From the NCBI GenBank assembly GCA_046726415.1, contig JBKPAK010000108.1, forward strand, positions 1-43,701: DNA of 43,701 nt. Direction: 5' to 3'. The stretch is from Candidatus Methylomirabilota bacterium. Its GTDB lineage: Bacteria > Methylomirabilota > Methylomirabilia > Rokubacteriales > CSP1-6. Below the pieces are notes generated by a model. The model was given only the letters and a program-made list of their open reading frames with translations, was not told the origin of the DNA and searched no databases. Positions 1,755 to 39,766 of this stretch are shown piece by piece (the first letter of the stretch is position 1; the number at the start of each line of letters is the position of its first letter). Both the position numbers and the translations under genes were made by a program.

Positions 1755-1783
1755 TTGACAGTGCGGTCAGACCACCCTAGCAT
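1755..1783 (+). promoter_or_regulatory. Sigma70 promoter of the FDH operon with an internal FadR-type operator
   Basis: TTGACA (1755-1760), 17-nt spacer, TAGCAT (1778-1783). The spacer carries CGGTCAGACCA (1764-1774). Confidence 0.75.
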
Positions 1784-1846
1784 TCAGGCGAACAGGCTCG
1801 TCGTAGTGTCCTTTCGTCGAGATCGGATCACCGAGTCGGAGGGAGG

Positions 1847-2125: not shown

Positions 2126-2177
2126 GCTGGGCCGGAGCCCCAGGTCCGAGCAACCAGCGCCACAAAGGAGTGCGCGC

Positions 2178-5279: not shown

Positions 5280-5281
5280 CC

Positions 5282-6088: not shown

Positions 6089-6102
6089 AGGGGGATCGCG
6101 CA

Positions 6103-7038: not shown

Positions 7039-7054
7039 GCGACGTCGGAGTCGC

Positions 7055-8721: not shown

Positions 8722-8844
8722 GAACTGCGGGGATCTTACCGCCGATCGCCCACCCAAGCCAGGCGGGGTGAGCCCCCGGAGGGGCCTCTGGGGACGTGGG
8801 CGCCCTCGCCGCGTCGCTCCGCCGTACTGGTGAATCATGGGGCT

Positions 8845-20876: not shown

Positions 20877-21644
20877 CTAGCGCGCGCTCTCGGGGCCGCC
20901 CAGGACCAGAGCCTCCACAGCCACCAGGTGATCGCGCATCGCGCGCTCGGCGGAGGCCGGCTGTCGTTCGGCAATCGCCTGCAGGATGCGTCGATGGTCT
21001 TCGTGCGAGCGCGTGGGTCGTCCCGGCGTGTTCAGCGATTCTTCGCGGCTCTGCGTGAGCAGATCCATCACCGCGTGCGCGATGCGCGTGATGGCTTCAT
21101 TGTGGGCGGCGCGCCCGATGGCCGCATGGAACTCCGCGTCCTGCGCGAAGCCGGTGCGCCCCGCCACCACCTCGCGCGCCTGGTCCTCGAGGATCCGCTC
21201 CATCTCCTGGATCTCATCGGGGGTGGCCCGCGCCGCGGCCAGCCCCGCGATGGCGGGCTCGAGCAGTCGCCGGGCCTCGAACAGTTCAGCCAGCGCCTCG
21301 CGCTGGGACACCATCACCAGGGCGAGCGGCTCCACCAGCCGATCGACGGACATCTCGCGGATGAAGGTCCCCTCCCCGGGCCGGATCTCCACGAGTCCCA
21401 GGCTTTCCAGGGCGCGCAACGCCTCGCGCACCGAGGTCCGGCTCACGAGGAACTTCTCGGCCAGCTCTCGTTCAGGGGGCAGGCGGTCCCCGCTGGTCAG
21501 CCGCCCCTCGGCGATCATGGTCTTGATCTGGCGGACAATCTCCTCGTAGATGCGCGTCGATCGGATCGGCACCAGATGCACGCCCCGTTCGCCTTCCGGT
21601 CCCCTGGGCCCGCCCTCCGGAGCGCTGCGTCGGTCGGCCGCCAT
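20877..21644 (-). CDS. GntR family, FadR subfamily transcriptional regulator
   Basis: GDRLPPERELAEKFLVSRTSVREAL HTH and FCD domain (DAEFHAAI...AHN, EDHRRI...MRDHL). Start at 21644 (ATG) or 21581 (GTG). Confidence 0.93.
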   Translation of the reverse strand: MAADRRSAPEGGPRGPEGERGVHLVPIRSTRIYEEIVRQIKTMIAEGRLTSGDRLPPERELAEKFLVSRTSVREALRALESLGLVEIRPGEGTFIREMSVDRLVEPLALVMVSQREALAELFEARRLLEPAIAGLAAARATPDEIQEMERILEDQAREVVAGRTGFAQDAEFHAAIGRAAHNEAITRIAHAVMDLLTQSREESLNTPGRPTRSHEDHRRILQAIAERQPASAERAMRDHLVAVEALVLGGPESAR

Positions 21645-22080
21645 CAGCGGTTCACGAGGGTCGGGGCGCCGGGTCCGCCACGCGCGCGAACCGGCCAACC
21701 TTCGGAGGTTCTCTCAGCGAGCAGGTACCACCAGCCCAGTGCGGCAAGGCCGATGCCGAGCGCGATGGGCAAGGGCAGCCGCGCAGACCACGCGATGCCC
21801 AAGACCACCAATATGAGGTGGCCGTGCGCCACCGCCGCCAGCGCGTTGTCCAGACGCATCACCACGTCGGCCACGACGATAATCCACATGGCCTCCATCA
21901 GCGCGGTGCCGTGGCGCCACGTGACCGCCCTCGCCGCCTCCGACATCCCGACAAACGAGCGTGAGGGCAATCCAGATCGGGAGAAGACCACCGGCGACTC
22001 GCCGGAGCGGAAGGCGCAAGAGAACGGTGATGATCGCGATGGAGACCAGGCCAGAATGCGGGCTCGAGCCGGGATGACAT
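21644..22080 (-). pseudogene. Decayed TerC/YjbE-family membrane protein
   Basis: Fragments in three frames: MSSRLEPAFW; IAIITVLLRLPLRRVAGGLLPIWIAL; EAMWIIVVADVVMRLDNAL...HGHLILVVLGIA (cf. the TerC DxVMSLDN motif). Far shorter than an intact gene. Confidence 0.72.
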
Positions 22081-22095
22081 GACGGCGACCTGTCC

Positions 22096-23613
22096 TCAGG
22101 TCCCCCCCAGAGGGTGGGCGACGCGGCTTCCTCGAAAGCGCTGCCACCACGGCGTCAGCACCGGGAGCAAGAAGAAGAAGACAGCCAGGGCGCTGATGAG
22201 ACCCGCGATGGGGCGTGTCGCGAAGATGGCCAGGGACCCCTGAGACATGATGAGACTCTGGCGAAGCGCATTTTCGGCCAAGTCGCCGAGGACCAGCGCG
22301 AGCACCAGCGGAGCCAACGGATAGTCGAGCTTCTTGAACACGTAGCCCACCACGCCAAACACCAACATGTACCACACATCGATCATGCTGCTGTGGACCG
22401 CGTAGGCGCCGATCGCGCACACCACCACGATGAGGGGAGTGAGGATGGCAAACGGAACGCGGAGGATCGCCGCGAAGCACGGCACGAAGAGCAACACCAT
22501 GAGCACGCCGATGATGTTGCCGGTGTACATGCTCGCGATGAGCCCCCACACGAACTCCGGCCTCTCCTTGAAGAGGAGCGGCCCCGGCTGCAGCCCCCAG
22601 ATGATGAGCCCTCCCAGCATGACGGCGGCCGTGGGTGAGCCCGGGATGCCGAGCGTGATCATGGGGAGGATGGCTGCCACCCCGGCGGAGTGCGCAGCCG
22701 TCTCCGGGGCCACGATCCCCTCCAACTCGCCCTTGCCGAACCGCTCCGGGTGCTTCGAGAACCGCTTGGCGAAGGCGTAGCTCATGAAGGACGCCGGGGT
22801 CGCTCCGCCGGGTTTGAAGCCCATCCAGAAGCCGATCACGGAGCCACGGATAAAGGTCCGCGTGTAGCGGGGGAGCACCTTCCAGGTGTCGAGCACCACG
22901 CGCGGGTTCATCCCCGTGCGCGCCCCGTGGAAACGCAGTCCCTCCTCGACGGAGAGCAGGATCTCTCCGATCCCGAAGAGGCCGATCACCGCGATGACGA
23001 AGTCGAACCCCTTCATGAGATCGGTGACGCCGAAGGTCAGGCGAAGTTGCCCGGTCACGATGTCCAGTCCGACGGTGGCGAGGATGAAGCCGAGGAGAAT
23101 GGAGACAAACGACTTCAGCGGATTGCCGCCGCCGAGGCCGATGAAGCTCGAGAAGGTCAGGAGCTGGATGGCGAAGAACTCCGGTGGGCCGAACTTCAAA
23201 GCCAGCTCGGCGAGGAGGGGCGCAAAGAAGGTGATGAGGACGATGGAGAAGAAGGCGCCGACGAACGACGAGCTGAAGGCTGCGGTCAGCGCCTGCCCCC
23301 CCTGTCCCTGGCGCGCCAGGGGATAGCCATCGAAGGTGGTGGCCACAGACCAGGGTTCCCCAGGGATGTTAAAGAGGATCGACGTGATGGCCCCGCCAAA
23401 GAGCGCGCCCCAGTAAATCGAGGTCAGGAGGATGATGGCCGAGGTGGGCGGCATCGTGAAGGTGAGGGGGAGCAAGATGGCCACGCCGTTGGCTCCCCCC
23501 AGCCCCGGCAGAACGCCGATGACCGTCCCCAGCAGCACCCCGACCACCGCGATGCCGAGATTGAAGGGCGTGATGGCGACCGAGAAGCCCATCACGAGGT
23601 TCTCGAGTCCCAC
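22096..23613 (-). CDS. tctA: Tripartite tricarboxylate transporter large permease
   Basis: GVLPGLG, SILFNIPGEP...TTFDGYPLA, GIVAPETA and LGIPGSPTAAVMLG. Confidence 0.95.
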   Translation of the reverse strand: MGLENLVMGFSVAITPFNLGIAVVGVLLGTVIGVLPGLGGANGVAILLPLTFTMPPTSAIILLTSIYWGALFGGAITSILFNIPGEPWSVATTFDGYPLARQGQGGQALTAAFSSSFVGAFFSIVLITFFAPLLAELALKFGPPEFFAIQLLTFSSFIGLGGGNPLKSFVSILLGFILATVGLDIVTGQLRLTFGVTDLMKGFDFVIAVIGLFGIGEILLSVEEGLRFHGARTGMNPRVVLDTWKVLPRYTRTFIRGSVIGFWMGFKPGGATPASFMSYAFAKRFSKHPERFGKGELEGIVAPETAAHSAGVAAILPMITLGIPGSPTAAVMLGGLIIWGLQPGPLLFKERPEFVWGLIASMYTGNIIGVLMVLLFVPCFAAILRVPFAILTPLIVVVCAIGAYAVHSSMIDVWYMLVFGVVGYVFKKLDYPLAPLVLALVLGDLAENALRQSLIMSQGSLAIFATRPIAGLISALAVFFFLLPVLTPWWQRFRGSRVAHPLGGT

Positions 23614-23616
23614 CCG

Positions 23617-24078
23617 TCAGTACCCGAGCCATGCCTCCAGGGGTCCCTTCGGCATGGGCACGAGGAACCACTGGTCGAAGACCACGAAAGCTACCACGGC
23701 GGTGCCGATGGCGCAGGCCAGCGTGGCCAGCCACGAGTGGTGGCCAATCCAGCGCATGTAGGTGGCGATGTAGAGGGCGGCGGCGACGTAGAGGCCGAGC
23801 CACTGCGTGAGCAGTACGAGGCCCACGGCCGGCAGAAGGACTTTGAGGACCAAGGCTAATTTTGCGCGCGTGACGAAGGGGTCACGGCCGCCCCGCCGCC
23901 ACGCCTGCACCATGGTGGCCGCGCAGGTCGCCACCATGAGCAATCCCAGCCAAAACGGAAAGAACCCGCTCTTGGGCCCGTCCGTCCCCCACCCGCTGCC
24001 GAGGCGGACGGCGTCGAACACGACGACGCCGCCCACCAGCATCAACAGCGCCGCAGTGATGAAGTCGGCGCGCCGCAT
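23617..24078 (-). CDS. tctB: Tripartite tricarboxylate transporter small permease
   Basis: GPKSGFFPFWLG, 4-5 TM helices and C-terminal VPMPKG; lies between tctC and tctA. Confidence 0.9.
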   Translation of the reverse strand: MRRADFITAALLMLVGGVVVFDAVRLGSGWGTDGPKSGFFPFWLGLLMVATCAATMVQAWRRGGRDPFVTRAKLALVLKVLLPAVGLVLLTQWLGLYVAAALYIATYMRWIGHHSWLATLACAIGTAVVAFVVFDQWFLVPMPKGPLEAWLGY

Positions 24079-25062
24079 TTACTTCTTCAGCAACCCGCCC
24101 TTCGCCATCAGGTCCTTGTGGAGCTGCTCAGCCCCCTCGAGCCACTTCACGTACTCGGGACCGGTGGCGAACGCCCCCTTGAGCGCGCCCTTGTGCAGGT
24201 AGTCCTGGAACTCCGGGCTGTCGTACACCTTTTTCAGGAGACTGACGTACCAGTCCACGGCATCCTTGGGCAGGTCGGGAGTCCCGAAGATCCCGCGCAG
24301 CATCTGGTACTGGAGATCCAAGCCGAGAGCTTCGTTGACCGTCGGGATTTCCTTCCAGTCCGGGTCGGGGATCCGCTCGGGGTCGAAGACGGCCAGCGGA
24401 CGAACGCGACCGGCCTTCCAGTGGCTGACGCACTCGATGGGATTGTTGACCGTCGAGTCCACGTGCTTGCCCACGAGATTGACGCACACCTCACCGCCGC
24501 CCCGGAATGGCACATAGGTGAACTTCACGCCTGTCCCCTGCTCGAGCTGGACGGTGATGATCTGGTCTTCCTGGGCGGAGCCGGTGCCCCCCATCTTCAT
24601 CCGATTGTCGCCGCCGGCGCGATCCTTGGCCGCCGCAATATATTCCTTGGCCGTCTTGTACGGCGTCTCGGCATTCACCCAGAGGATGAAGCGGTCGAGG
24701 GCCAGGCGGGCGATGGGCGTCAGGTCCTTCCAGTTGAAGGGCACCCCCGTGTGCAGGGGCGTCGTGAAGAGGTTCGAGAGGGTGATGATGATGGTGTGCG
24801 GATCGCCCTTCTTGCCTTTCACGTAGAGAAAGCCCTCGGCGCCAGCGCCGCCAGCCTTGTTGACCACGACGATCGGCTTCGGAGAGAGCTTGTTCTTCTC
24901 GACGATCCCGGCGATGAGCCGTGCCATCTGGTCAGCGCCCCCGCCGGTCCCCGCGGGGACGATGAACTCGATCGGCCGCGTGGGCTCCCACGCAGCCTGC
25001 GCCGGACCAACCCCAGCGACCGCGGCCCAGGCCACGACAATCACGAGCGCGATTGATTTCAT
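24079..25062 (-). CDS. tctC: Tripartite tricarboxylate transporter substrate-binding protein (Bug/TctC)
   Basis: Signal peptide, PAGTGGGADQMAR, VVNKAGGAG and VPFRGGG. Confidence 0.93.
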   Translation of the reverse strand: MKSIALVIVVAWAAVAGVGPAQAAWEPTRPIEFIVPAGTGGGADQMARLIAGIVEKNKLSPKPIVVVNKAGGAGAEGFLYVKGKKGDPHTIIITLSNLFTTPLHTGVPFNWKDLTPIARLALDRFILWVNAETPYKTAKEYIAAAKDRAGGDNRMKMGGTGSAQEDQIITVQLEQGTGVKFTYVPFRGGGEVCVNLVGKHVDSTVNNPIECVSHWKAGRVRPLAVFDPERIPDPDWKEIPTVNEALGLDLQYQMLRGIFGTPDLPKDAVDWYVSLLKKVYDSPEFQDYLHKGALKGAFATGPEYVKWLEGAEQLHKDLMAKGGLLKK

Positions 25063-25182
25063 GTGACGTTCCTCCTCAGCGCTGAGAAAGACTCCGCCCT
25101 ACGAAACAAGCCGGGGTCAAGCGCCGTTCCGCGCCTGACCCCGCCTCTCACGCGCGGGTGGTTGCAGACCGACCACGCACTC

Positions 25183-26214
25183 CTACTGAGCGCTGAGGGC
25201 AGCCTTCGTCGCCTCGAGCCGCCGGAAGGGAACGACGGCCGGGATCTCCCACGTGTCCCACATCTGATCGACCTTGGCCTGGAAGTATCCCAGGTCCTCC
25301 TCCGTGAAGTGGGCGAACCGCCCTTGCTTCAGGAGGTACTCGCGCACGGGCTTCCGCTTGCGTCCGTCGACGAGGGCCCGGGTCTTGCCGTAGTACTTGA
25401 CCACGCCGTCCTCGACCTCGTAGAGCGGGAACAAGCCCGTCTCGATGGCCAGCTCGCCCATCTCGTGGGACAGCATGGGATCGTAGTCCCAGCCCTTCGG
25501 GCACGGGTCCAGCGAGTGGATGAACGTCGGACCCCCGATGGTCAGGGCCCGGCGCACCTTGTTCATCATCTCCACCGCGTACGACGCGCACACGGTCGCC
25601 ACGTAGCGGCATTCTGGGTGCCCAGCCGCCATCATTCCCGCCATGTTCTTCTTCCAGCGGGTGTGGATGATGCGCTTGGCTTTGCCGGGCGGACTGAATG
25701 TCGTGTGGGCACCGTACGGCGTCATGCCCGAGAGCTGGATGTCGGTGTTGGCGTACGACTCATTGTCGTACAGCAGGATCAGGGAGTTGTATTCCTTGTG
25801 GGTCAAGGTCGCCGAGATGGCGCCGATGCCCATGTCGGCGCCTCCGCCGTCACCGCAGAAGGCGATGACGTTGATGGGCTCGGCCTTAATCTTGCCCTTG
25901 TTCATGAGGGACTTGAGTCCGGCCGCCGTCCCCAGCGCTGCCGAGCCGGAGGAGCCGAGCTGGGTGTGCATCCATGGCACCACCCACGGGGTCGTGTAGT
26001 ACGTGGTGTTGGCCACGTACATGCACCCGGTCGAACCCAGCACGATGGTGCGCGGGCCGGCGGCCTTGACCATGAGCTTCATAACCAGAGCCGACTCGCA
26101 GCCCTGGCAGGTCCGATGGCCCGACGTGAAGTACTCCTCGATGGTGACCCTCTTGATTCCCCGGAAGGGCTCGAGGATCTGCGTGGCGTTCGTAAATGTG
26201 GTCGTCTCGGCCAT
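25183..26214 (-). CDS. oorB: 2-oxoacid:ferredoxin oxidoreductase beta subunit (TPP-binding), oxalate oxidoreductase-like
   Basis: GHRTCQGC, TGCMYVANT, GDGG...YDNESYANT and PCPKGW. ATG at 26214. Confidence 0.8.
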   Translation of the reverse strand: MAETTTFTNATQILEPFRGIKRVTIEEYFTSGHRTCQGCESALVMKLMVKAAGPRTIVLGSTGCMYVANTTYYTTPWVVPWMHTQLGSSGSAALGTAAGLKSLMNKGKIKAEPINVIAFCGDGGGADMGIGAISATLTHKEYNSLILLYDNESYANTDIQLSGMTPYGAHTTFSPPGKAKRIIHTRWKKNMAGMMAAGHPECRYVATVCASYAVEMMNKVRRALTIGGPTFIHSLDPCPKGWDYDPMLSHEMGELAIETGLFPLYEVEDGVVKYYGKTRALVDGRKRKPVREYLLKQGRFAHFTEEDLGYFQAKVDQMWDTWEIPAVVPFRRLEATKAALSAQ

Positions 26215-26224
26215 GGGTGCTCTC

Positions 26225-27454
26225 CTATTCGCGGACGCCGAGCCAGTGGGTCGTGGCGTCGGACTTGCCGGAATCCGCGGCACTGTAACACATGTCGGTC
26301 GCCTTGTAGACGTCCTCCAGGGTCACTTCACGCCCGCCCAGGCCCGAGATGAAGCTGAGGAGCGGTGGCCGCCGGTCGGCGTTGTACAGGGCGGCCCGGA
26401 TCTCGTTGGCCACCACGCCGGAGCCGAAGGGCGACCCAAACGAGTAGTCGCGGTCGATGACACCGATGGCCTTGCCCTTCGAGAGCGCGGCCACCAGCTT
26501 CTCCGTCGGGAATGGCCGGAACCAGCGGAGCCGAACCAGTCCAACTTTCTTCCCCTGGGCGCGCATGTTGCGGATCCCCACCTTGATGGGCAGCGAGATG
26601 GTGCCCATCCCCACCAGGATGATGTCGGCATCGTCGGTCATGTACTCCTCGAACCACGGGTTCTCGGGTCCGCGGCCGAAGACGCGCCGAAAGTCGGCGT
26701 AGACTTCTTCGATGACAGAATACGCGCGCTTCATGGCTTCGTTGTTCTGGCGCCGAATCTCGATGACCCAGTCCTCGTTCGCCTGCGGGGCGACCGTGAT
26801 GGGGTTGTCGGGATGCAGGAGTAGGTCCCCGCGATTGTAGCGGGGCAGAAACGCATCCACCTTCTGCTTCGACGGCACCAGAGTGATCGCCTGCGAGTGG
26901 GTGAGGAACGCGCCGTCGGCCGAGATGGCGAGGGGTAGAAAGACGCGGCGATCCTCGGCCACGCGGTAGGCGATCAGGGTCGTATCCAGCGCCTCCTGCG
27001 AGGTGTCGATCCAGACCAGCATCCAGCCGAGATCGCGCACGAAAAGCGCATCGTTGTGCTCGACGCCGAACGCCCCCGGGTCATCCAGAGCCCGGTTGCC
27101 CACGAGGGTCACCATGGGGACCCGCAAGGGTGGCGTGACCACCAGGCACTCCATGGCATACGCCCAGCCCACGCCGGATGAGCCGCAGAAGACCCGCGCC
27201 CCCACGGTCGAGGCGTGCTTGACGATCTCGAATTGGCTGTGCTCACCCTCGGCCACGATGTACTCGGCCACGAGCTGGCCGCTGGAGATCTTCTTGGCGA
27301 TCGCCTGCATGACCGTGTCGTATGGCCGGATCGGATAGGCCGTGACCACGTCCAGGTCGGCTAGGGTGAGCGCCTCGGCCACCGCCTCGCTGCCGGAGAT
27401 GAGCAGCTCTTTGTCCTCGCTGACGGCCGGAACCGTCGCTGTGGTAACCGCCAT
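26225..27454 (-). CDS. oorA: 2-oxoacid:ferredoxin oxidoreductase alpha subunit, oxalate oxidoreductase-like (YPIRP)
   Basis: SGSEAVA, YPIRPY (27323-27337) in place of PFOR YPITP, EGEHS, GNRALD, FRPFP and GLGGRE. Confidence 0.8.
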   Translation of the reverse strand: MAVTTATVPAVSEDKELLISGSEAVAEALTLADLDVVTAYPIRPYDTVMQAIAKKISSGQLVAEYIVAEGEHSQFEIVKHASTVGARVFCGSSGVGWAYAMECLVVTPPLRVPMVTLVGNRALDDPGAFGVEHNDALFVRDLGWMLVWIDTSQEALDTTLIAYRVAEDRRVFLPLAISADGAFLTHSQAITLVPSKQKVDAFLPRYNRGDLLLHPDNPITVAPQANEDWVIEIRRQNNEAMKRAYSVIEEVYADFRRVFGRGPENPWFEEYMTDDADIILVGMGTISLPIKVGIRNMRAQGKKVGLVRLRWFRPFPTEKLVAALSKGKAIGVIDRDYSFGSPFGSGVVANEIRAALYNADRRPPLLSFISGLGGREVTLEDVYKATDMCYSAADSGKSDATTHWLGVRE

Positions 27455-27469
27455 GCCCGTTCCCCTCCC

Positions 27470-28678
27470 CTACACTGTCTTGTGCTTGGCGTTCTCGCCG
27501 GGAATGCCGGCGGTAATCTCGACGCCACCGGTGTCGAGGTCCGCCACTAGCTCCTGCTCGTACTGGCCTCGGAAGCGGAAACCGTGCGAGCGCGCCGTCG
27601 CCTTCTTGTCGGAGATCTTGTCGATCAGCCAGGTCTTATAGACCCCTTTGTCCTGGCGCCACATCTCCCACTGGCTGGCGTTGTCGTCGAAGAGCGACTC
27701 GTTGACCATGGTGATGCAGTGCTCCACGGGACAGACCGCCTCGCACACGCCGCAGCCGCAACAGGCCTCCATGTTGGCGTCGAAGGTGGCATCGGGCATG
27801 ACGTCGAAGCATGAGTCTGGGCAGGCGATCCAGCACAGATTGCACTTGACGCAGGTGTCGAAGTCGATCACCGGCCGCATCGTCCGCGTGGTGTACTTCT
27901 TGAAGTACGGGTTGCGCTCGGGCACGTAGCCCTTGCCTTCCTCCTTCGGCTTGCCGATGGGGATGGCGGGGATCGTGACGCCCTCCCGCATCTCCCACCA
28001 CTTGGGCATCTCGAAGGAGAACGGAACCTCGTCGTTGCCCTCGGTCATCGTCACCCCGCGCGTCTCCAGCCGGTCGTAGGCCTTGCGCGCCGAAGCGACC
28101 TTCAGGTCCGAGCCCCACTCGGTCTCCTTGACGGCCTGACATACGGCGTCGAGGCTAAGGAAGTCGGGCGCGATGCGGGCGAGGGCGCCGAGGATCCGCA
28201 CTTCCGTGTGATCCTCTCGGTACACCCAGAGGCCGGAGAAGGACGCCTTGGCGCGGATGAGGCTCAACTTCCAGGGCGCATCCTTCTTGTGGATGTCCTC
28301 GAGCAGGCTCTCGAACGATTGCAGGGACGTCATGAGGACCGTCCCGTTGGACACGGTCAGCCGGTTGATCGGCTGCAACCCGTACCAGGCCCACGATTCC
28401 ACGCCCTTGGACAGGGTATCGTCCACGCAGATGGTGACATCGGTGTGCTTGGGCTCGTAGCGCGCCATGTTCTGTTCGAGCTCTTCCTTGCTGTCGGCCA
28501 CGATCGCGAAGTCCTTGGCGGGAATCCCGTTCCGTTGCGGGCTGTCCCCATAACGGCCAAAGGCGATGCCCCATCGCCCCGCTTTCCGGGCCGATAGCAC
28601 GATGCCGCGGGTGATGCGCGCGGCCAGGTTCTTCTGGAAAATCCCGCGGTAGACCACTTCGCAGATCAGGGCAGACAT
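27470..28678 (-). CDS. oorD: 2-oxoacid:ferredoxin oxidoreductase fused gamma/delta subunit with 2x[4Fe-4S]
   Basis: Divergent gamma-like N-terminus ([12 protein letters not shown]) and a ferredoxin domain RTMRPV...[12 protein letters not shown]...[12 protein letters not shown]. Confidence 0.75.
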
Positions 28679-28712
28679 GCGGTCCCTCCTCGTCTCAAGC
28701 CAGATGCGGACT

Positions 28713-28763
28713 TCTGGTCGGATGGTCCGACCAGAGGGTACCCGACGCTCTCGGATGATTCAA
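28713..28763 (-). promoter_or_regulatory. Promoter of the oor-tct operon with adjacent FadR-type operator
   Basis: Minus strand TTGAAT (28758-28763), 17-nt spacer, TACCCT (28735-28740). Inverted repeat TCTGGTCGGA-TGG-TCCGACCAGA (28713-28735) contains TGGTCCGACCA. Confidence 0.75.
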
Positions 28764-28837
28764 GGGCCATCGGTGAATTGATGAACGGGCGTACATTGGC
28801 GGTCTCGGCGAAATCTGGGGGGGCGCGGAGGGCTGCC

Positions 28838-29254
28838 ATGGGAATTCTGAAAGAGTTCCGTGAGTTCGCGGTCAAGGGGAGCGTGGTGGACCTGGCCGTC
28901 GGCATCATCATCGGAGCCGCGTTTGGCAAGATCGTCAACTCCCTGGTGACCGATGTGATCATGCCGCCGATTGGCCTTCTCCTCGGAGGCGTCGATTTCT
29001 CGAGCTTTGCCCTGACCCTCAAGCCCGCCTCCGTCGACTCGGCCGGGAAGGCCGTGCCGGCCGTCCTCCTGAAATACGGTCTCTTCGTCAACACCGTCAT
29101 CGAGTTCGCCGTCGTAGCCTTTGCCGTCTTCCTGCTGGTGAAGGCGATCAACGCGGCTCGCCGCGAGCAGGCGCCGCCTCCGCCCGCCCCCCCTCGCGGG
29201 GAAGTGCTGCTCGGAGAAATACGCGATCTGCTGAAGGCCCAAACCAAGAGGTAG
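28838..29254 (+). CDS. mscL: Large-conductance mechanosensitive channel
   Basis: [37 protein letters not shown] and [10 protein letters not shown]. Confidence 0.97.
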
Positions 29255-30823: not shown

Positions 30824-30858
30824 GAGGTCTCCGAGGAGTAGCCGTGGAAGATCATGAG
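30796..30858. repeat. 31-bp tandem duplication (period 32, 2 mismatches) of the PaiB-like gene start
   Basis: TCTCCGAGTAGTAGTCGTGGAAGATCATGAG (30796-30826) versus TCTCCGAGGAGTAGCCGTGGAAGATCATGAG (30828-30858). Confidence 0.9.
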
Positions 30859-31484
30859 ACCCTCGCGCTGGCCGCGGCCCCTCGTCGAGCGCGCCGGCTC
30901 TGGGCCACCATCTCGCAAAAGTAGCGATGCACGGTCGGATCATCGGTCAGCTCGGGGTGGAAGGTGGCCACCAGGATGTTGCCCTCCCGTGCCATCACCG
31001 GCTCGCCGTGGCGACTCGCCAGCACTTCCACCTCGTGGCCGAGCCGCCGGATGCGCGGCGCGCGGATGTAGACCATCTCGATGGGCACCGTCCGGCCGTT
31101 CAGGGTGGCCATCCCCTGCTCCTCGAACGACTCGCGCTGGCGACCGTAGGCATTGCGCTCCACAGTAGCGTCGATGAAGCCGAGCGAGAACTGATGGGGA
31201 TTCTGCACCTCGGCGGCGAGGAGGATCAGACCCGCACAGGTGCCGAAGATGGGCCGCTCGGCCCGTCGGAAGCCTCTCAGCGCCGGCGCGAAGTCCCACT
31301 CGTCCAGAAGCTTGAGCAGCGTGGTGCTCTCGCCGCCCGGAATGATGAGCCCATCCAGGCCCGCCAGTTCCTCGGGCTTGCGGACTTCCACCCACTGGGC
31401 GCCACAGCGCTCCAGAGCCTTGCGGTGCAGATGGAAGTCGCCCTGGAGCGCGAGGACGCCGATCTTCAGCGGCTCACCAGCCAC
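30852..31484 (-). CDS. pdxT: PLP synthase glutaminase subunit
   Basis: [35 protein letters not shown] and FHPEL. Probable GTG at 31484. Confidence 0.95.
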
Positions 31485-32370
31485 GGGTCTGTAGCAACTC
31501 GTCCTTGGCCATCTTGGCCACGTCGAGCCCGGGCATGGCATCCCCCAGCTCCTCGCTCACCCGAGCGAGGACGTCGGCATCCTTGTAGTGGGTGGTGGCC
31601 TGCACGATGGCCTTGGCCCGCTTCGGTGGATCCGACGACTTGAAGATGCCCGAGCCGACGAAGACAGCCTCGGCGCCGAGCTGCATCATGAGGGCGGCGT
31701 CGGCGGGCGTGGCAATGCCCCCGGCGGAGAAGTTCGGTACCGGCAGCCGCCCCGCCTTGGCGACCCAGCGCATCAGCTCGATGGGCGCGCCCAGGTTCTT
31801 GGCTTCCGTCATCAGCTCTTCCGGGGCCAGCGTCGTGAGTCGCCGGATGCCGCCCACCACCGCGCGCATGTGGCGGACCGCCTCCACGATGTTGCCGGAA
31901 CCCGCCTCGCCCTTGGTCCGGATCATGGCCGCGCCCTCCCCGATGCGACGCAACGCCTCGCCGAGGTCGCGCGCCCCGCACACGAACGGGATGCGAAAGG
32001 CGAACTTGTCGATGTGGAAGTGCTCGTCGGCCGGGGTGAGAACCTCGGATTCGTCGATGAAGTCGACGCCGAGCGACTCCAGAATCTGCGCCTCCACGAA
32101 GTGACCGATGCGCGCCTTGGCCATCACGGGGATGGTGACGCCCTTCTGGATCTCGCGGATCTTGGCCACCGAGGCCATGCGCGCCACGCCGCCCTCCTTG
32201 CGGATGTCCGCGGGCACGCGTTCGAGCGCCATCACCGAGGTCGCTCCCGCGTCCTCGGCGATCTTGGCCTGCTCGGCGTTGGTAACGTCCATGATGACGC
32301 CGCCCTTCAGCATCTCGGCGAGGCCGATATGCTTGCGGTCGGCAATGTGCAGTCCGTCTAATTCCGTCAT
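31474..32370 (-). CDS. pdxS: PLP synthase lyase subunit
   Basis: [39 protein letters not shown] and FVGSGIFKS. Confidence 0.97.
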
Positions 32371-32392
32371 GGTCTTCTCCTTTCGGGATTCG

Positions 32393-33931
32393 TTACACCA
32401 CCGGCACGGGAACGCCCGCCGCCGCCCGGCGTCCGACCGGGCGCCGAAGCGCGGCGCGAATCGCCTCGGCCAGCCGGCGCACTCCCTCGTCGATGCGGCT
32501 GGCCGGGACCGACGAGAAGGACAGACGCACCGTCTGCTCGCCACCGCCATCGACGAAGAACGACTCGCCCGGCGTGAAGGCCACCCCGCGCTCGATGGCG
32601 GTCGGCAGGAAGGCGCTGGCGCGGAACCCGGAGGGAAGGGTGAGCAGCAGCGAGAAGCCGCCCCGCGGCTCCGTCCAGCTCGTGCCCTCGGGCAGGCGCC
32701 GCCTCAGCGCGGCCACCAGAAGATCCCGCCGTCGCCCGTATTCGCGAGCGACCCGCGCCACGTGGCGATCGAGGAGCCGCCGGTCACAGAAGCGGTACAC
32801 GGCGGCCTGGATGAGCGCGCTCGTATGAAGATCGGCGAGCTGCTTGGCGGCCTGGAGCCGCTCGTGGATGGCGGCGGGGGCCACGATCCAGCCGAGCCGC
32901 AGCCCGGGGAACAGGATCTTCGAGAACGTGCCGATGTAAATCACCACGCCGTGGCGGTCGCTGGCTTTGAGCGGTGCGGTCGGGCGCGGACCGTAGTACA
33001 GACTTCCGTCGAACCCGTCCTCGACGATGGGGACCTGGCGCTGCGCCGCCGTGGTCAGGAGGCGATGGCCGGCCTCCCGCGTGATGGCGAGTCCGGTGGG
33101 ATTGTGGGCGTTGGGCTGGCAGTAGAACAGCTTGGGTGAGTGACGCTCCAAGAGCCGCTCGAGCACCTCAGCCCGCGGCCCCTCCCCGTCCCACGGCACC
33201 GCGAGCAGCTGAGCGCCGAACGACCGGAAGACCTGCAGGGCGCGCGGATACGTGGGCTGCTCGATGGCGATCACGTCTCCGGGGTCGATGAGGGTGCGCG
33301 CGATGAGGTCGAAGCCTTGCTGCGATCCGTTTACGATGAGGATCTCCTCCGGACGCGCCTCGATGCCGACGCGCAGGAGGTAGGCGCTGAGATAGCGGCG
33401 AAGTGGCGGGTAGCCCCCTGCGGGGTAATACTGGAGCAGCGACTCGCCCTCGTCGCGGATGACCCCATTGAGGACCCGCCGGAACGCATCGGTGGGGAAA
33501 AGCCCGCTATCGGGCATGCCCCCGGCGAACGAGATGACGTCCCCGTCGAGGGCCGCTGGCACGCCGTGACTCCGCCGGCGTTCCTCGTCGGCTCCGATGA
33601 TCTGGGCGCTGCGCGAGAAGAGGCCGGACCAGTCGATGGGGGTCGCGCTCCGCGCACGGCTGGGCGGGGTCGGCGCCCCGTCCATCCGTTCGGCGACGAA
33701 GGTGCCTTGTCCCACGTGGGCGCGCGCCAGCCCGGCCGCCACGAGCTCTTCGTAGGCCAGCGACACGGTAGCCCGGTTCACTCCAAGCGCCCCCGCCAAC
33801 TCCCGGGTGGCGGGCAGTTTCACCCCGGGCGCGAGGAGGCGCTCCTGGATGAGCCGCTCGATCTGCTCCTCGATCTGGCGGGCCAGCGGCACCGGCCGGC
33901 TCCGGTCGAGCTGAATGTTCATCCGTGCCAT
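32393..33931 (-). CDS. pdxR: MocR/GabR-family regulator (GntR HTH plus PLP aminotransferase domain), PdxR-like
   Basis: KLPATRELA...[20 protein letters not shown] and [15 protein letters not shown]. Directly upstream of pdxST. Start at 33931 or 33922. Confidence 0.85.
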
Positions 33932-33951
33932 TCTTGCCTCATTTCGATCAC

Positions 33952-33990
33952 CGTCAAGCGCCAATTGGCGCGTCTGGGAACGGGCCAATG
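33952..33990 (-). promoter_or_regulatory. Putative pdxR -35 element and MocR-type operator repeats
   Basis: Minus-strand TTGACG (33952-33957) abutted by the perfect palindrome GCGCCAATTGGCGC (33958-33971), plus a further GCCAAT (33984-33989). Confidence 0.5.
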
Positions 33991-34132
33991 ATCGGGGACG
34001 GCGTGACAGGAGCGGCCGGGACACGGGCCGGTGCGGTCGCGGAGCCGAGCCGACGCTATAATGGCGGCGAATGGCCGGTCGCCGAAGAGGGGCCCGGCGC
34101 CGATCCCGCGGGGGCGCGAGGCGGAGGACGCG

Positions 34133-34309
34133 ATGAGTGCAGGCGAGGCGCCCGTGAAGCAGGCCATCAAATGGCTCGATGACCGGCTCCAGGACAACCC
34201 GCAGGCGGACCGCGCCAAGCTGGTCGACGAAGCCTCGCGTCGCTTCGACCTGTCTCCCCTGGATGCCGACTTCCTCTATCGCCACCTCGCCACGCGGCCC
34301 CGATCGTGA
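34133..34309 (+). CDS. Small helical hypothetical protein (58 aa)
   Basis: GGAGG RBS and upstream TATAAT (34057-34062). MSAGEAPVKQAIKWLDD...RFDLSPLDADFL. Stop overlaps the next gene (GTGA). Confidence 0.75.
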   Translation: MSAGEAPVKQAIKWLDDRLQDNPQADRAKLVDEASRRFDLSPLDADFLYRHLATRPRS

Positions 34310-35439: not shown

Positions 35440-35532
35440 GCGCAGTCCTAACGCTCAGAAGCGCGGGCCGGCCATCACGTGCTTTTGCCAGTGCTCGAAG
35501 CTCAGGAGATCCTCCCCCGAGAACTTGCACTG

Positions 35533-35940
35533 TCAAAAGGTCGCCGCCCGTTCAAAGAAGGTGACGTCCACGAGGATGACGCTCTCCGCGCGCGCCGTCT
35601 CTGCGACCTTCTGGGTCACCATCTGCCGCACGAACGGGATGGGGATTCGCCCGAGGCGGTGCAACACCTCATCGGTGCAGCGGATGCGGGTGCCAGGGAG
35701 GAGGGGTCCCTCGGTCGCGACGCCCACCTCGTCTGGATCGTGCTCGCACGTCTCGGGGACGAGTTGCTGGAGACGCAGGGAGACGTAGTCGGTCACCCAG
35801 GCTTGGAGTCCCGCCTTGGCCTCCTCGGCGCGAAGGGCCGCGCGATCGAGTTTTTCGCCCACAGACTGGACGAGCGTCTCCACGCGGGCCAGGCGCGCCT
35901 CCAAGGAAGCCAGCCGCTGATTGAGGGTCGAGTCATCCAT
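35533..35940 (-). CDS. Coiled-coil plus PCP_red (BchB C-terminal)-like domain protein; possible UGA readthrough to 35455
   Basis: ATG at 35940. N-terminal heptads LASLEARLARVETL; C-terminal TDEVLHRLGRIPIPFVRQMV...KVAETAR. Confidence 0.7.
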   Translation of the reverse strand: MDDSTLNQRLASLEARLARVETLVQSVGEKLDRAALRAEEAKAGLQAWVTDYVSLRLQQLVPETCEHDPDEVGVATEGPLLPGTRIRCTDEVLHRLGRIPIPFVRQMVTQKVAETARAESVILVDVTFFERAATF

Positions 35941-36000
35941 GCGCGGAGAATACCCGCCGGTGGCTCGGGCCGGCAAGGGGCCGGGGTAGAATCGACCGAC

Positions 36001-37869
36001 GTGGCTGTCCTCCTGACCATCCTCACCGACCCGCGCGATCCCTCGGTGCGCCGGGCGCTCAGTGCCGCGCCGGGCCTCTCGATTCTGAAGGCGGCCCAGG
36101 CCGGCGGGGTCGACATCACCGCGACGTGTGGCGGGCGCGGGCGCTGCACGTCGTGCCGCGTGAAATTCGTGGCCGGCCCCATCCCGCCCCCGACCATCAT
36201 GGACGAGGTTCAGCTCGGGGCCGACCAAGTGCGCGAGGGTTATCGCCTGTCCTGCCAGTGTCGGCCGGAAGAGCCCGTCAGCGTGCAGGTGGCGCCTCCG
36301 CTCGAGGAGCTTTCCTTTCAGATGCTAGGGCCAGAGGACCGCGCGGGAGCGCTCGGGCGGGTGGCCATCGACTCCGGCGTGGACAAGCGCCTGGTGACCG
36401 TCGCCCTCCCGCGGGAAGAGCACCATCAGACCTCGGACCTCGAGCAACTGCTCGCCGCCGTGGGCGGTGAGCCGATGGACGTCGGCGCCAGTGTGTTGGC
36501 CGGCCTGCCCCGGGCCCTGCGCGAAGACCCCGCCGGGGCCACCGTCACCACCTTCGGCCGGCGCATCATCGCCGTCGAGCGCGGCGACACGACGTCCATG
36601 AAGTTCGGCCTCGCGGTCGATGTGGGCACGACCAGCGTGGTGACCACGCTGATCGAGTTGACGTCGGGCGAGCAGCTCGCCTCCGTGTCGAGCTTGAATC
36701 CGCAGGCGGTGTTCGGTGGCGACCTCATGTCTCGCATCGCCTTCGCCCAGTTCAATCCCGCGAATCTCCGCAAGCTCACCACGCGGATCATCGGTCTGCT
36801 CAACCGGCACATCGCCCAGCTCTGCCATCAGGTCGGCGTGCTCCCGAAGTGGATCTATAAGGTCGTCGTGGTCGGCAATACCTGCATGCATCACCTGCTC
36901 CTGGGCATCGACCCGTCCTGGGTCGGGCTGGCGCCCTACGCTCCGGTCATGCGGCATCCGCTCACCATCCCGGCCCGCGATCTCTTCCTCCGCGTCGCTC
37001 CGGACGCGCGCGTGTGCTTTTTGCCCATCGTGGCGGGATTCGTGGGGGCGGACGCGGTGGCGGTGGCCCTGGCCACGCGAATCTACGAGTCGCCGAAGCT
37101 TCGCATGGCCATCGACATCGGCACCAACGGAGAGGTGCTCCTGGGCTCGCGCGACCGGTTGTGGGCCGCCTCCGCGCCGGCCGGGCCCGCCCTGGAGGGC
37201 GCGCAGATCCGCCATGGGATGCGGGCCGCCCTCGGCGCCATCGATCGCGTCGGGATCCGCGACGACATCAGCGTGCATACGATCGGCGAGACGCCGCCCC
37301 TCGGCATCTGCGGCTCTGGACTCATCGATCTGATCGCCGGCTTGCTCGATGCTGGCGTCATCGACGCGACCGGACTGATCCAGGTCGAGGAACGCGAGCG
37401 CTTCACGGCGGGGCTGCGCGACCGGGTCGAGATGCGGGGAGAAGAGCGCGTGGTGGTGGTCCAGCGCGCCGGTGAGTCGGGGGCCGGCCACGAGATCATT
37501 CTGACCCAGGACGACGTCCGCCAGGTCCAGCTCGCCAAAGGCGCTATCGCCTCCGGCGCGGCGCTGCTGCAGCGCGTGGCCGGTGTTCCCGCCGGTGAGA
37601 TCGAGGAGCTGATGCTGGCGGGAGGGTTCGGCAACTATGTCTCCGTGGCCAGCGCCCTGCGCATCGGTCTCATCCCCGCCATGCCGGCTTCGCGGGTTCG
37701 CTACGTGGGCAACGCGGCCGCGCTCGGGGCCCAGATGTGCCTGCTCTCCGAGACCGAGCGCGCGACGGCCGCGCGCATCGCCGCGCAGGTGGAGCACATC
37801 TCGTTGGCCGCGCACGGCGACTTCGAGCAGATTTTCGTCGACTGTATGAACTTCCCGCCGCGCGGATGA
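36001..37869 (+). CDS. ASKHA-family reductive activator of corrinoid proteins (RACo/AcsV-like) with N-terminal 2Fe-2S domain
   Basis: CGGRGRCTSC...RLSCQC, DVGTTS, NPQAVFGGDLMSRI, GFVGAD, DIGTNGE, AGPALEG, GICGSG, QLAKGAI and LAGGFG. Probable GTG at 36001. Confidence 0.9.
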   Translation: MAVLLTILTDPRDPSVRRALSAAPGLSILKAAQAGGVDITATCGGRGRCTSCRVKFVAGPIPPPTIMDEVQLGADQVREGYRLSCQCRPEEPVSVQVAPPLEELSFQMLGPEDRAGALGRVAIDSGVDKRLVTVALPREEHHQTSDLEQLLAAVGGEPMDVGASVLAGLPRALREDPAGATVTTFGRRIIAVERGDTTSMKFGLAVDVGTTSVVTTLIELTSGEQLASVSSLNPQAVFGGDLMSRIAFAQFNPANLRKLTTRIIGLLNRHIAQLCHQVGVLPKWIYKVVVVGNTCMHHLLLGIDPSWVGLAPYAPVMRHPLTIPARDLFLRVAPDARVCFLPIVAGFVGADAVAVALATRIYESPKLRMAIDIGTNGEVLLGSRDRLWAASAPAGPALEGAQIRHGMRAALGAIDRVGIRDDISVHTIGETPPLGICGSGLIDLIAGLLDAGVIDATGLIQVEERERFTAGLRDRVEMRGEERVVVVQRAGESGAGHEIILTQDDVRQVQLAKGAIASGAALLQRVAGVPAGEIEELMLAGGFGNYVSVASALRIGLIPAMPASRVRYVGNAAALGAQMCLLSETERATAARIAAQVEHISLAAHGDFEQIFVDCMNFPPRG

Positions 37870-38744
37870 TCCCGCGACCGCCGTGCCCCTCCGCTTCGGG
37901 GTTGGCCATCCCCTCCAGCATCCTGGGGCGCGAAGCCGGACCCTTCCGTGCGGCGATCGACGCACGGTGGCTCATGGCGTATGCCGCGGCCGCCGGACTT
38001 CACCACCCGTCGTACTTCGACACCACCACCGCCGACGGTCCACTGGCGCATCCGCTCTTTCCCGTGTGCTACGAGTGGCCGCTCCTCGTCGACATTCGCG
38101 ACCGCGCCATCGGGGAGGCCGCGGCGCCATTCGGCGTGCACGCCAGCCATCGACTCGTCCTCCATCGGCTCCCACGAGCCGGCGACATCATGACCACGGC
38201 GGCCCGGGTCCTCTCCGTCACCTCGCGCCGATCCGGCACTCTGGTGACGGTCCGCCTTGCCACCACGGACGAGCAGGGACGTCTGGTCAGCGAAACCGAC
38301 TACGGTTCCCTCTACCGGGGCGTGCCGCTCGCGGGAGCCGCGCTGGCGGAGACCCCCCTCCGACGGGCGGAGCCGGTGGAGCGTCGGCCGCGCTGGAGCG
38401 AGCGCGTCGACGTGCCCTATCACCTCGCACACGTTTACACGGAGTGCGCGCGGATCTGGAATCCCATCCATACTGATCTGGCGGCGGCGCGCGCGGCCGG
38501 GTTGCCTGTCCCGATCCTGCACGGAACGGCCACCTTGGCCCTCGCGGTGTCGCAACTCGTGGACCGCGACCTCCAGGGCGACGCCCGGGCTGTGCGCGGG
38601 ATCGAGGCGCGGTTCGCCGGCATGGTGGTCCTCCCCTCGATCTTCACCGTCTGCGCCGGCGGGCGGCAGCCGGAGGCCATCGCGTTCGAGGCGGTGGCGG
38701 CCGACGGGTCTCGCGTTCTGAGCGAAGGAGTCCTTCGTCTATGA
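37866..38744 (+). CDS. Double hot-dog MaoC-like dehydratase/hydratase
   Basis: AHPLFP, GVHASH and WNPIHTDLAAARAAGLPVPILHGTAT. ATGA overlap with the upstream gene. Confidence 0.85.
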   Translation: MIPRPPCPSASGLAIPSSILGREAGPFRAAIDARWLMAYAAAAGLHHPSYFDTTTADGPLAHPLFPVCYEWPLLVDIRDRAIGEAAAPFGVHASHRLVLHRLPRAGDIMTTAARVLSVTSRRSGTLVTVRLATTDEQGRLVSETDYGSLYRGVPLAGAALAETPLRRAEPVERRPRWSERVDVPYHLAHVYTECARIWNPIHTDLAAARAAGLPVPILHGTATLALAVSQLVDRDLQGDARAVRGIEARFAGMVVLPSIFTVCAGGRQPEAIAFEAVAADGSRVLSEGVLRL

Positions 38745-39766
38745 AACAGATGAGCCGTGGCGAACGCATCGCGGCCGCCCTGCGCCGAGAGCCCCTCGAT
38801 CGCGTGCCGTACGCAGTGTGGCGCCACTTCCCCATCGTCGACCGCTCGCCCGCCGGCCTCGCCCAGGCCACCCTCCGGTTCCACGAGCGCTATGGCTCGG
38901 ACTTCCTGAAGCTCACGCCCAGCGGGGGCTATGCCGTGCAGGCGTGGGGCTGCGTCGAAAGCGAAGAGGTCCGGCCCGACGGCCACCGTCCCTGCGCGTC
39001 CTGCGCGGTGCGCGATCCCGGTGACTGGGCGAAGATCCGCGAGCTTGATCCAGCAACGGCCGAGGGCTACGTGCAGCAACTCGAGGCGATCGTGCGGATG
39101 GGCTTCGACCGCCGCATCGGCGACACTCCGGTCGTACCGACCCTCTTCTCTCCGCTCTCCCTGGCCCGCAAGCTGTCCGGCGGCCGGCTCAACGCCGATC
39201 TACGCCAGCATCCCGCCGCGCTGACCGGCGCGCTGGAGGCCATCACGGCGACGCTCATCCGCTTCGCCGAGCTAGCGCTCAGCGAAGGTGTCTCCGGCAT
39301 CTTCTACTCCATCCAGGCGGCCAGCCGGAGCCTTCACACCGAGGAGGAGTACGCGCGGTTCGGAGAGCCCTACGATCGGCGCTTCCTGGAGGCCATCGCC
39401 AGAGGGTCGATCCTCACCATCATCCACGCGCACGGCGATCAGCTCATGTTCGACCGTCTGTCCCGTCTCCCGGGCCACGCGTGGAACTGGGACGACCGGG
39501 CCACGCCACCTTCCCTCGCCGCCGGGAGCGCCGCCGTGCCGGGCGCGGTCATCGGCGGGCTCAACCAATGGGTCACCCTTCGCGATGGAACCCCGGATCA
39601 GGCGGTGAAGGAAGTCGAAAACGCTATCGCGCAGACGGGCGGCACGGGATTGATCGTGGGTCCAGGCTGCGTGCTGCCCATGAATACGCCCGACGCCACT
39701 GTGGCGGCGGTGGTTCGGCGCTTGGGCGGGCCGCTGAAGCCGATTCCCGGCGTGAAGCTGGATTAG
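38741..39766 (+). CDS. Uroporphyrinogen decarboxylase superfamily protein (URO-D/MtaA-like)
   Basis: ERIAAAL...DRVP, SDFLKL, TLFSPL, IIHAHG, IGGLN and LIVGPGC. Confidence 0.82.
   Translation: MKQMSRGERIAAALRREPLDRVPYAVWRHFPIVDRSPAGLAQATLRFHERYGSDFLKLTPSGGYAVQAWGCVESEEVRPDGHRPCASCAVRDPGDWAKIRELDPATAEGYVQQLEAIVRMGFDRRIGDTPVVPTLFSPLSLARKLSGGRLNADLRQHPAALTGALEAITATLIRFAELALSEGVSGIFYSIQAASRSLHTEEEYARFGEPYDRRFLEAIARGSILTIIHAHGDQLMFDRLSRLPGHAWNWDDRATPPSLAAGSAAVPGAVIGGLNQWVTLRDGTPDQAVKEVENAIAQTGGTGLIVGPGCVLPMNTPDATVAAVVRRLGGPLKPIPGVKLD

Follow-up and report, generated by a model that had tools for sequence, protein, structure and literature searches.

We analysed a gene cluster at positions 20877-28763 of a 43,701-nt stretch of DNA (the window) from an uncultured soil Rokubacteria-type bacterium (Methylomirabilota). 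All genes of the cluster lie on the minus strand and encode a three-subunit 2-oxoacid:ferredoxin oxidoreductase (OFOR), a tripartite tricarboxylate transporter (TTT) and a GntR-type regulator, a combination that may serve the uptake and oxidation of a small acid such as oxalate. The host genome is of metagenome type, comprises 7.6 Mb and is 98% complete by marker genes; the DNA of the window has a GC content of ~65-70%. The features of the cluster and of the promoter discussed with it are as follows; TPP denotes thiamine pyrophosphate and FDH formate dehydrogenase.

27470-28678, minus strand: OFOR gamma-delta fusion, 402 aa, with domain III, a two-[4Fe-4S] ferredoxin domain (Fer4 domains) and a conserved C-terminal tail
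26225-27454, minus strand: OFOR alpha, 409 aa, POR_N and PFOR_II domains, with Y40-P-I-R43-P44, Arg121 and the loop N-R-A-L-D-D-P-G-A128-F
25183-26214, minus strand: OFOR beta, binding TPP and the proximal [4Fe-4S] cluster, TPP_enzyme_C domain
25112-25143, minus strand: GC-rich hairpin of 13 bp in the spacer from beta to tctC, resembling a terminator, its T tract weak
24079-25062, minus strand: TctC, periplasmic binding protein (Pfam TctC, 98.8 bits)
23617-24078, minus strand: TctB, small membrane subunit (Pfam TctB, 66.4 bits)
22096-23613, minus strand: TctA, large membrane subunit (Pfam TctA, 513.2 bits, match over the full length)
~21782-21922, minus strand: remnant of a TerC/YjbE-family gene, 46 residues (Pfam E 7e-5, YjbE model E 1.6e-9)
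20877-21698, minus strand: GntR/FCD regulator (GntR 84.6 bits, FCD 101.1 bits)
28713-28735, no strand assigned: operator, a perfect 10+10 inverted repeat TCTGGTCGGA-TGG-TCCGACCAGA
28679-28837, minus strand: intergenic region between gamma-delta and mscL, with the putative promoter TTGAAT-17-TACCCT and a GGAGG ribosome-binding site
28838-29254, plus strand: divergent mscL (Pfam MscL, 148.5 bits)
1755-1784, plus strand: promoter TTGACA-17-TAGCAT with the palindrome GGTCAGACC in its spacer, before an operon of a small open reading frame (ORF) and FDH-N genes

The genes follow each other in the direction of transcription as gamma-delta, alpha, beta, a 120-nt spacer, tctC, tctB, tctA, a 397-nt spacer and gntR. 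The ORF of beta extends over 25183-26283 from a GTG, the ATG at 26214 being the likelier start, and the true start of the regulator possibly lies downstream of the TTG at 21698. The domains of the OFOR superfamily (POR_N, PFOR_II, TPP_enzyme_C and the 2x[4Fe-4S] domain) and the contiguous tctC, tctB and tctA genes all score above their Pfam cut-offs. Beta carries the motifs GHRTCQGC and GCMYVANT and the TPP motif GDGG...NESYANT, and the gamma-delta subunit carries two CxxCxxCxxxCP motifs, which are kept together with the C-terminal tail in 10 sequences of the clade to which the enzyme belongs (clade A, see below). An earlier annotation of this DNA (the sequence-only reading) had described the gene set, with YPIRP in alpha and GHRTCxGC and GCMYVANT in beta, as one minus-strand operon with promoter and operator. 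Every part was found again at its coordinates, with all of the motifs present in the translations. The hairpin between beta and tctC may divide the one operon into two units. The inverted repeat of the operator is present; a promoter scan called no sigma-70-like promoter before the OFOR genes.

To our knowledge, the oxalate oxidoreductase (OOR) of Moorella thermoacetica is the only known enzyme of its kind. Among solved enzymes it is the nearest relative of the OFOR for all three subunits: alpha scores 330.2 bits against OOR chain 5c4i_A compared to 202.8 bits against the pyruvate:ferredoxin oxidoreductase (PFOR) chain 9bt4_B, beta 296.7 bits (5c4i_C) compared to 204.2 bits (9bt4 beta), and delta 64.4 bits (5c4i_B; residues 10-328, E 7e-17) compared to 44 bits (9bt4). 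With the Moorella enzyme (EC 1.2.7.10; 5c4i, 5exd, 5exe) the OFOR of the window shares the three-subunit layout with a fused gamma-delta subunit, the TPP motif, the Cys ligands for three [4Fe-4S] clusters and two arginines, of which OOR Arg31 corresponds to Arg43 in YPIRP and OOR Arg109 to Arg121, the latter being invariant in an alignment of 11 sequences. According to passages of PMC5020499, Arg31 provides the oxalate binding site and makes a unique YPIRP motif in OOR, Arg31 and Asp116 "play important roles" in a "bait and switch" mechanism, and the Thr of the corresponding YPITP motif binds the carboxylate of pyruvate. In the alpha subunit of the window this Thr is replaced by Arg, and among 150 representatives all [YF]PIRP matches were closer relatives, YPITP prevailing further down. 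The two enzymes differ in the length of delta, which comprises 402 aa with the conserved tail in the window compared to 315 aa in the solved OOR chain, and in their hosts, an uncultured soil Rokubacteria-type bacterium as opposed to an acetogen.

A scan of one genome per species yielded 80 related loci, which fall into clade A (60 loci), clade B (19 loci) and a single locus, L069, which is intermediate between the two. Clade A groups with the window, its alpha subunits being 46-91% identical to that of the window, and is carried by, among others, Rokubacteria, Acidobacteriota, Anaeromyxobacteraceae, Dehalococcoidia/SAR202, Bathyarchaeota, Thaumarchaeota and Thermoplasmata, so that the earlier statement of an occurrence outside acetogens was correct but understated. 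Clade B (41-44% identity) is found mostly in Acidobacteriota and includes the acetogen Clostridium ragsdalei. The [YF]PIRP arginine is present in all 60 clade-A loci, the loop of which reads RALDDPGAF in 57, RALDDPGNF in two and RTLDDPGAF in one. Clade-B alphas have DPPGDF with Asp116 in 19/19 loci, and all 14 of those tested pass the NCBIfam OOR alpha equivalog model (575.7-790 bits; the models NF045790-NF045792 have cut-offs of 500 for alpha, 590 for beta and 230 for delta). A clade-B beta (437.9) and a clade-B gamma (171.8) also stay under their own OOR models, and therefore only the alpha model separates the clades. Twenty-four alpha positions are fixed differently between clades A and B, and the loop region, residues 118-134, accounts for six of these.

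The relationships were examined in a quick maximum-likelihood alpha tree (IQ-TREE, 76 rows, no outgroup, unrooted), which holds 19 of the 60 clade-A and 8 of the 19 clade-B sequences, L069, three representatives and 45 of the 75 eligible YPITP sequences. Three groups are well supported, namely clade A together with its fringe of archaeal sequences at an SH-aLRT of 98, clade B at 100 and a YPITP group of Por/Vor-like sequences at 99; the long-branched row P0154, which probably derives from a chimeric record, is placed inside clade A. A phylogeny with OOR, PFOR and branched-chain 2-oxoacid:ferredoxin oxidoreductase (VOR) references had been proposed for this locus; in the alpha tree the enzyme falls outside the YPITP PFOR/VOR group and also apart from clade B. 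Judged by these comparisons, the enzyme resembles OOR in layout and basic residues but sits in a distinct, uncharacterised clade.

Within the phylum, the enzyme has near-core status: 145 of the 201 sampled genomes, and 83 of the 104 of high quality, have a homologue at E<=1e-60 (most 80-93% identical), a tally that takes in the unpublished genomes G029, G058, G151 and G047. Databases label the clade-A enzyme "pyruvate ferredoxin oxidoreductase", and none of the papers seen in literature searches on oxalate oxidoreductase (also together with Acidobacteria) and on Rokubacteria with oxalate or ferredoxin oxidoreductase deals with clade A.

The substrate context was sought in the gene neighbourhoods, for which 41 of the 60 clade-A loci have full flanks. 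Of these, 33 harbor a homologous GntR/FCD regulator within 9 kb, mostly directly upstream of delta, 12 a transporter of the OFA family of the major facilitator superfamily (MFS), 11 TctCBA and eight an oxidase of 2-hydroxyacids dependent on flavin mononucleotide (FMN). Across all 60 loci, an OFA-family MFS gene lies within 6 kb in 17, and three out of three bacterial MFS neighbours tested pass the cut-off of 335 of the equivalog model for the oxalate/formate antiporter OxlT (508.5, 486.2 and 460.1). In Acidobacteria, clade-B genes stand in a recurrent frame of AMP-ligase, PanE-like reductase, GntR regulator, Cdc48-like ATPase, gamma, a 610-aa NAD(P)-type subunit, alpha, beta, two small genes and OxlT. 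At L025, a clade-A cassette takes the place of clade B in that frame with OxlT present, and no second OOR was found within the 21 kb examined. At L014 (1-12382), clade-A genes are strung before clade-B genes behind a single regulator, and clade-A cassettes also adjoin clade-B genes at L027, L031 and L074, which makes four Terriglobia loci with both including L014. In a tree of the regulators, those beside clade-A and clade-B enzymes are intermixed. This sharing of the clade-B frame is the strongest argument for placing clade A in oxalate metabolism.

The clade-B operons resemble the window in the YPIRP motif of alpha and in their GntR/FCD regulator, and their OxlT-type transporter stands in operons in which clade A can replace or accompany clade B; they differ in their separate gamma, the 610-aa Fer4_20/pyridine-nucleotide subunit and the Cdc48-like ATPase, none of which occurs in the window. 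At L063, L064 (5159-15926), L066, L070 and L077, the clade-B string consists of the Cdc48-like AAA ATPase, the separate gamma and the 610-aa Fer4_20 plus pyridine-nucleotide oxidoreductase subunit and ends in genes for a response-regulator-like protein, a protein of 107 aa and OxlT, with AMP-ligase, PanE-like reductase and GntR upstream. These strings have the appearance of an OOR island that is NAD(P)-linked and includes a branch for assimilation. The AMP-ligase and PanE-like genes, which carry no more than generic names in NCBIfam, may as a pair convert oxalate via oxalyl-CoA (CoA, coenzyme A) to glyoxylate, a conversion reportedly described by Schneider et al. 2012.

No gene for Frc, Oxc or OxlT was found in the window by profile search, in agreement with the sequence-only reading. 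In the whole genome, the best matches to frc (TIGR03253, 484.5 against a cut-off of 504.2) and oxc (TIGR03254, 525.4 against 739.4) also stay below their cut-offs and lie on different contigs without oxalate-type neighbours. Compared to the Frc/Oxc/OxlT system of Oxalobacter formigenes, the cluster would serve the same end, the use of imported oxalate, but employs a TTT importer, and neither a CoA cycle nor formate as product would be expected.

The regulator, which had been called FadR, is instead a GntR protein of the FadR subfamily (FCD): it reaches 31.9 bits against a cut-off of 189 and 28.1 against 249.2 with the FadR equivalog models, and the NanR, LldR, PdhR and GlcC models of NCBIfam all score far under their cut-offs as well. 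It is the probable repressor at the operator, whose core TGGTCNGACCA is followed by an extra GACCA half-site and which is located 35-57 nt upstream of the codon with which gamma-delta starts; its 21-nt pattern has one match in the window compared to 0.06 expected. The putative -35 and -10 elements TTGAAT-17-TACCCT, recognised by visual inspection and with the help of related loci, abut the operator. Upstream of gamma-delta, TGGTCNGACCA-NCNGACCA is present in 8/8 close Rokubacteria-type loci, with variation in the centre base and the flanks, and in all eight a TTGACA box and a -10-like hexamer immediately precede the operator. This pattern of conservation is the phylogenetic footprint of an operator whose position would let a bound protein obstruct RNA polymerase.

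The strict core TGGTCNGACCA occurs only three times in the 7.6-Mb genome. One of the two other sites (L082, G000:C104:5305) precedes an operon of a luciferase-like monooxygenase, a molybdenum hydroxylase and a 2-oxoglutarate-dependent oxygenase that ends in its own FCD regulator, and the other (L083, G000:C245:28552) lies by a Peripla_BP_6 binding-protein gene of an ATP-binding cassette (ABC) transporter. Since the strict core stands beside another FCD-regulated operon, the motif is not unique to one regulator.

A link to FDH through a shared operator had been claimed from the window. Counted within the window, matches are at chance level, with 16 of the 11-mer with two mismatches compared to 17.2 expected and two of GGTCNGACC compared to 2.03 expected; in relatives, by contrast, the palindrome is conserved at both promoters. 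The pattern TTGACA-N3-5-GGTCNGACC was found in 25 of 61 family genomes (including the unpublished G029) at 29 sites, compared to 0 for the reversed control. Sixteen of the 29 sites precede the same small-ORF/FDH operon, comprising the window's own, L108 from G029 and others from a set of 15 relatives' loci in all, one precedes the OFOR delta gene of another genome with two operators, five precede family-5 binding-protein genes and seven are other or unidentified sites. From this we infer that the same protein may bind the OFOR and the FDH promoters.

The FDH-N operon of the window (1755-7912, plus strand) consists of a 92-aa ORF of no known family, alpha with an MSLSRRDF start (2178-5279; TIGR01553, 1147.3 bits, cut-off 814.2), a 4Fe-4S beta subunit, a membrane subunit of the NrfD type and an ORF weakly similar to FdhE, and fdhD lies opposite to it (7948-8838, minus strand). 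L089, L092, L103, L105 and L106 represent a third promoter class, in which the TTGACA-palindrome precedes genes of family-5 ABC solute-binding proteins; at L022, a family-5-type ABC transporter is encoded directly upstream of the GntR-OFOR genes.

The dedicated TTT importer, together with the operator architecture and the palindrome common with the FDH promoter, is what is new in this window. The importer is like other members of the TctCBA family in having all three components in the usual order C-B-A, and unlike them in its TctC, which has no more than distant relatives among the members with a solved structure and a defined ligand, the closest solved structure being that of an uncharacterised protein (4x9t, 129.9 bits). 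Thirteen OFOR-linked TctCs (that of the window and 12 others, from four lineages) form one clade in a tree, in which the genome's five other TctC paralogues (25-30% identity) fall apart. This monophyly indicates that the binding protein travelled with the enzyme, and by its position in the tree TctC belongs to an orthologous group seen only beside this OFOR.

In the spacer between beta and tctC, a strong hairpin is found in the window and in L002-L005, L007, L008, L011 and L022, its sequence not being conserved. It is possibly a partial terminator or a transcript-stabilising element, and since it is kept at this place, enzyme and transporter genes may differ in their level of expression. In one soil RNA-library run, 71 contigs matched beta, alpha and delta, six of them at >=99%, and almost none matched the tct genes or the regulator, in a library that may contain DNA and whose contigs are no proof of transcription; in a second RNA-library run no contigs matched the cluster. 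TerC is a gene that has been gained and lost in the spacer between tctA and gntR, where the relatives L011 and L008 have intact copies (153.6 and 161.4 bits). The same spacer holds two tandem TerC-like ORFs (230 and 250 aa) in L005 and none in L002.

Taken together, we propose that the cluster is a substrate-inducible uptake-oxidation module and that its substrate is a small acid of the dicarboxylic or 2-oxo type, oxalate being the most probable, a proposal to which we give an even chance. Without an inducer, the GntR/FCD regulator would sit on the palindrome abutting the -10 region and block transcription. With the inducer, TctC would take up the acid in the periplasm and TctAB would import it, as is usual for their family. 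The (gamma-delta)-alpha-beta enzyme, equipped with TPP as well as a trio of [4Fe-4S] clusters, would then hold the acid between Arg43 and Arg121 of alpha, and the acid would be decarboxylated on TPP with two electrons passing via the clusters to a ferredoxin-type acceptor. If oxalate is the substrate, the products would be 2 CO2 and CoA would not be needed, by analogy with Moorella OOR. Going further, and more tentatively, clade A might be the principal enzyme, overlooked until now, by which soil and marine bacteria and archaea other than acetogens oxidise oxalate, working without the Asp switch and being, in Rokubacteria, near-core, TTT-fed and co-regulated with a periplasmic FDH via one operator; we consider this possible, with the odds somewhat against it. 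In a bolder variant, the altered loop would change the chemistry such that formate leaves instead of the second CO2, which would explain the link to FDH.

Several observations weigh against oxalate as the substrate. The window proteins stay below the cut-offs of the OOR models for alpha (370.8 bits), beta (347.6) and delta (78.3), which are still their best NCBIfam matches, 0 of 12 further clade-A alphas pass the alpha model (366-413.6 bits), and the archaeal PorA model scores only ~40 bits below the OOR alpha model. The OOR loop L-D-P-P-G-D116-F aligns with L-D-D-P-G-A128-F, which replaces Asp116 by Ala and Pro113 by Asp, and within clade A the position of Asp116 is Ala in 58/60 and Asn in 2/60 loci and never Asp. 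With DDPGAF instead of DPPGDF, the electrostatic "switch" step would have to work differently. With the equivalog cut-offs failed and Asp116 missing, the enzyme is not an OOR orthologue. Moreover, clade A is large and uncharacterised, and, the tree being unrooted, it is the Arg motif common to both clades that speaks for A and B as sisters. In the neighbourhoods, 10 of the 41 full-flank loci have no OFA-MFS, TctCBA or 2-hydroxyacid oxidase gene, the OxlT-type neighbours reach or approach the cut-off for L-lactate transporters, with two just passing it, and the occurrence of A and B in one string suggests non-redundant enzymes. In 9/60 loci, clade A adjoins FMN-dependent 2-hydroxyacid oxidases, whose best matches are an L-lactate oxidase entry and glycolate oxidases (290 bits) and which would supply glyoxylate or pyruvate, fitting these as well as oxalate. 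Finally, the palindrome in the FDH promoter would make more sense with formate as product.

A first alternative is that the same module acts on glyoxylate, or on glyoxylate derived from glycolate, by oxidative decarboxylation to CO2 and formate or formyl-CoA, the formate going to the co-regulated periplasmic FDH-N. The conserved palindrome at both the OFOR and the FDH-N promoter makes such a formate-yielding reaction slightly more likely, the 2-hydroxyacid oxidases lie directly downstream of the enzyme genes, the OFA-family antiporters would have formate to export, and the active-site loop is unlike that of OOR. The string in which clade A occurs with a cut-off-passing OOR and a PanE-like gene fits as well, since the latter could make glyoxylate from oxalyl-CoA. 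On the other hand, the two substrate-facing arginines would suit a dicarboxylate better, going by the passages of PMC5020499, and at L025 the clade-A cassette stands in the place of OOR beside OxlT. FDH-N would also act outside the cytoplasm, given the twin-arginine-like MSLSRRDF start of its alpha subunit, and the operon is without a CoA-handling or formyl-CoA gene. We therefore regard glyoxylate as rather unlikely, albeit the foremost competitor of oxalate. In the Dehalococcoidia/SAR202 loci (L033, L034, L036, L039, L040, L042, L044, L045 and L049), one or two FMN-dependent 2-hydroxyacid oxidase genes follow the clade-A genes, often with a divergent TPP enzyme of the acetolactate-synthase/sulfoacetaldehyde-acetyltransferase type before them and no adjacent transporter.

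It is quite improbable, in our estimation, that the substrate is another acidic 2-oxoacid or C2-C4 dicarboxylate such as mesoxalate, oxaloacetate or oxamate, in which case the oxalate-type neighbours would handle related but different substrates. The clade-specific alpha positions clustering around the loop would agree with this, as would the replacement of Asp by Ala, which should make the pocket larger and more positive. TTT binding proteins cover many carboxylates (solved relatives are, by their entry names, of the aspartate, terephthalate and adipate type), and near-core status is unusual for a niche substrate. However, no neighbour gene points to such a substrate, and the equivalog-level OxlT neighbours and the OOR-island frame favour oxalate.

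Very improbable is an ordinary CoA-dependent PFOR or VOR, maybe tied to the pyruvate phosphate dikinase gene next door, which follows the regulator in 7/8 close tct-type loci. The database name, PorA/PorB models scoring only 40-66 bits below the OOR models and a regulator most like the NanR, LldR and PdhR models speak for it. Against it, the Thr that binds the pyruvate carboxylate (in the passages of PMC5020499) is Arg in 60/60 clade-A members, the YPITP group stands apart from the clade (SH-aLRT 98-99), the dikinase gene, 326 nt further on, is preceded by a promoter-like site of its own, and pyruvate inactivates Moorella OOR, going by the title of Pierce et al. 2017. With the four-subunit PorABDG/VorABDG enzymes the OFOR shares the domain set and a similar length; it differs from them in the fusion of gamma with delta, and no Por/Vor model passes its cut-off (PorA_Arch 330.9 bits against 550, the others lower still). 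The genome also has five E1-alpha-type dehydrogenase genes, one SucA-like gene and two KorA-type OFORs, and with these other pyruvate-oxidising candidates a housekeeping PFOR is not needed.

Elsewhere in the window, the plus-strand genes at 35479-39766 encode a RACo-type reductive activator of corrinoid enzymes, a MaoC-like protein and a URO-D/MtaA-like methyltransferase-family protein, which hints at a corrinoid-dependent methyl-transfer system. On the minus strand (30852-34285), pdxT and pdxS adjoin a gene for a MocR-type GntR-aminotransferase fusion regulator in a PdxR-like arrangement.

Among the organic acids that plants and fungi release, oxalate is one of the commonest, and the oxalate-carbonate pathway is driven by microbes that oxidise it. 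A review of oxalotrophy from 2024 (PMC13409138) describes, in passages found, the CoA-dependent Frc/Oxc route and states that surveys of oxc and frc underestimate oxalotrophy; a TPP-dependent oxidoreductase route in soils is not treated in these passages. If clade A is indeed the principal oxalate-oxidising enzyme outside acetogens, a large share of soil oxalate turnover would proceed via a CoA-free, ferredoxin-reducing route that is invisible to frc/oxc surveys. The invariant loop change lends itself as a natural experiment on the "bait and switch" mechanism proposed for OOR. If clade A oxidises oxalate, several of the most abundant uncultured lineages of soil and ocean would be candidate oxalate consumers, the public annotation as "pyruvate ferredoxin oxidoreductase" would be wrong, and the families of TctC and of the regulator would each gain a first member linked to oxalate.

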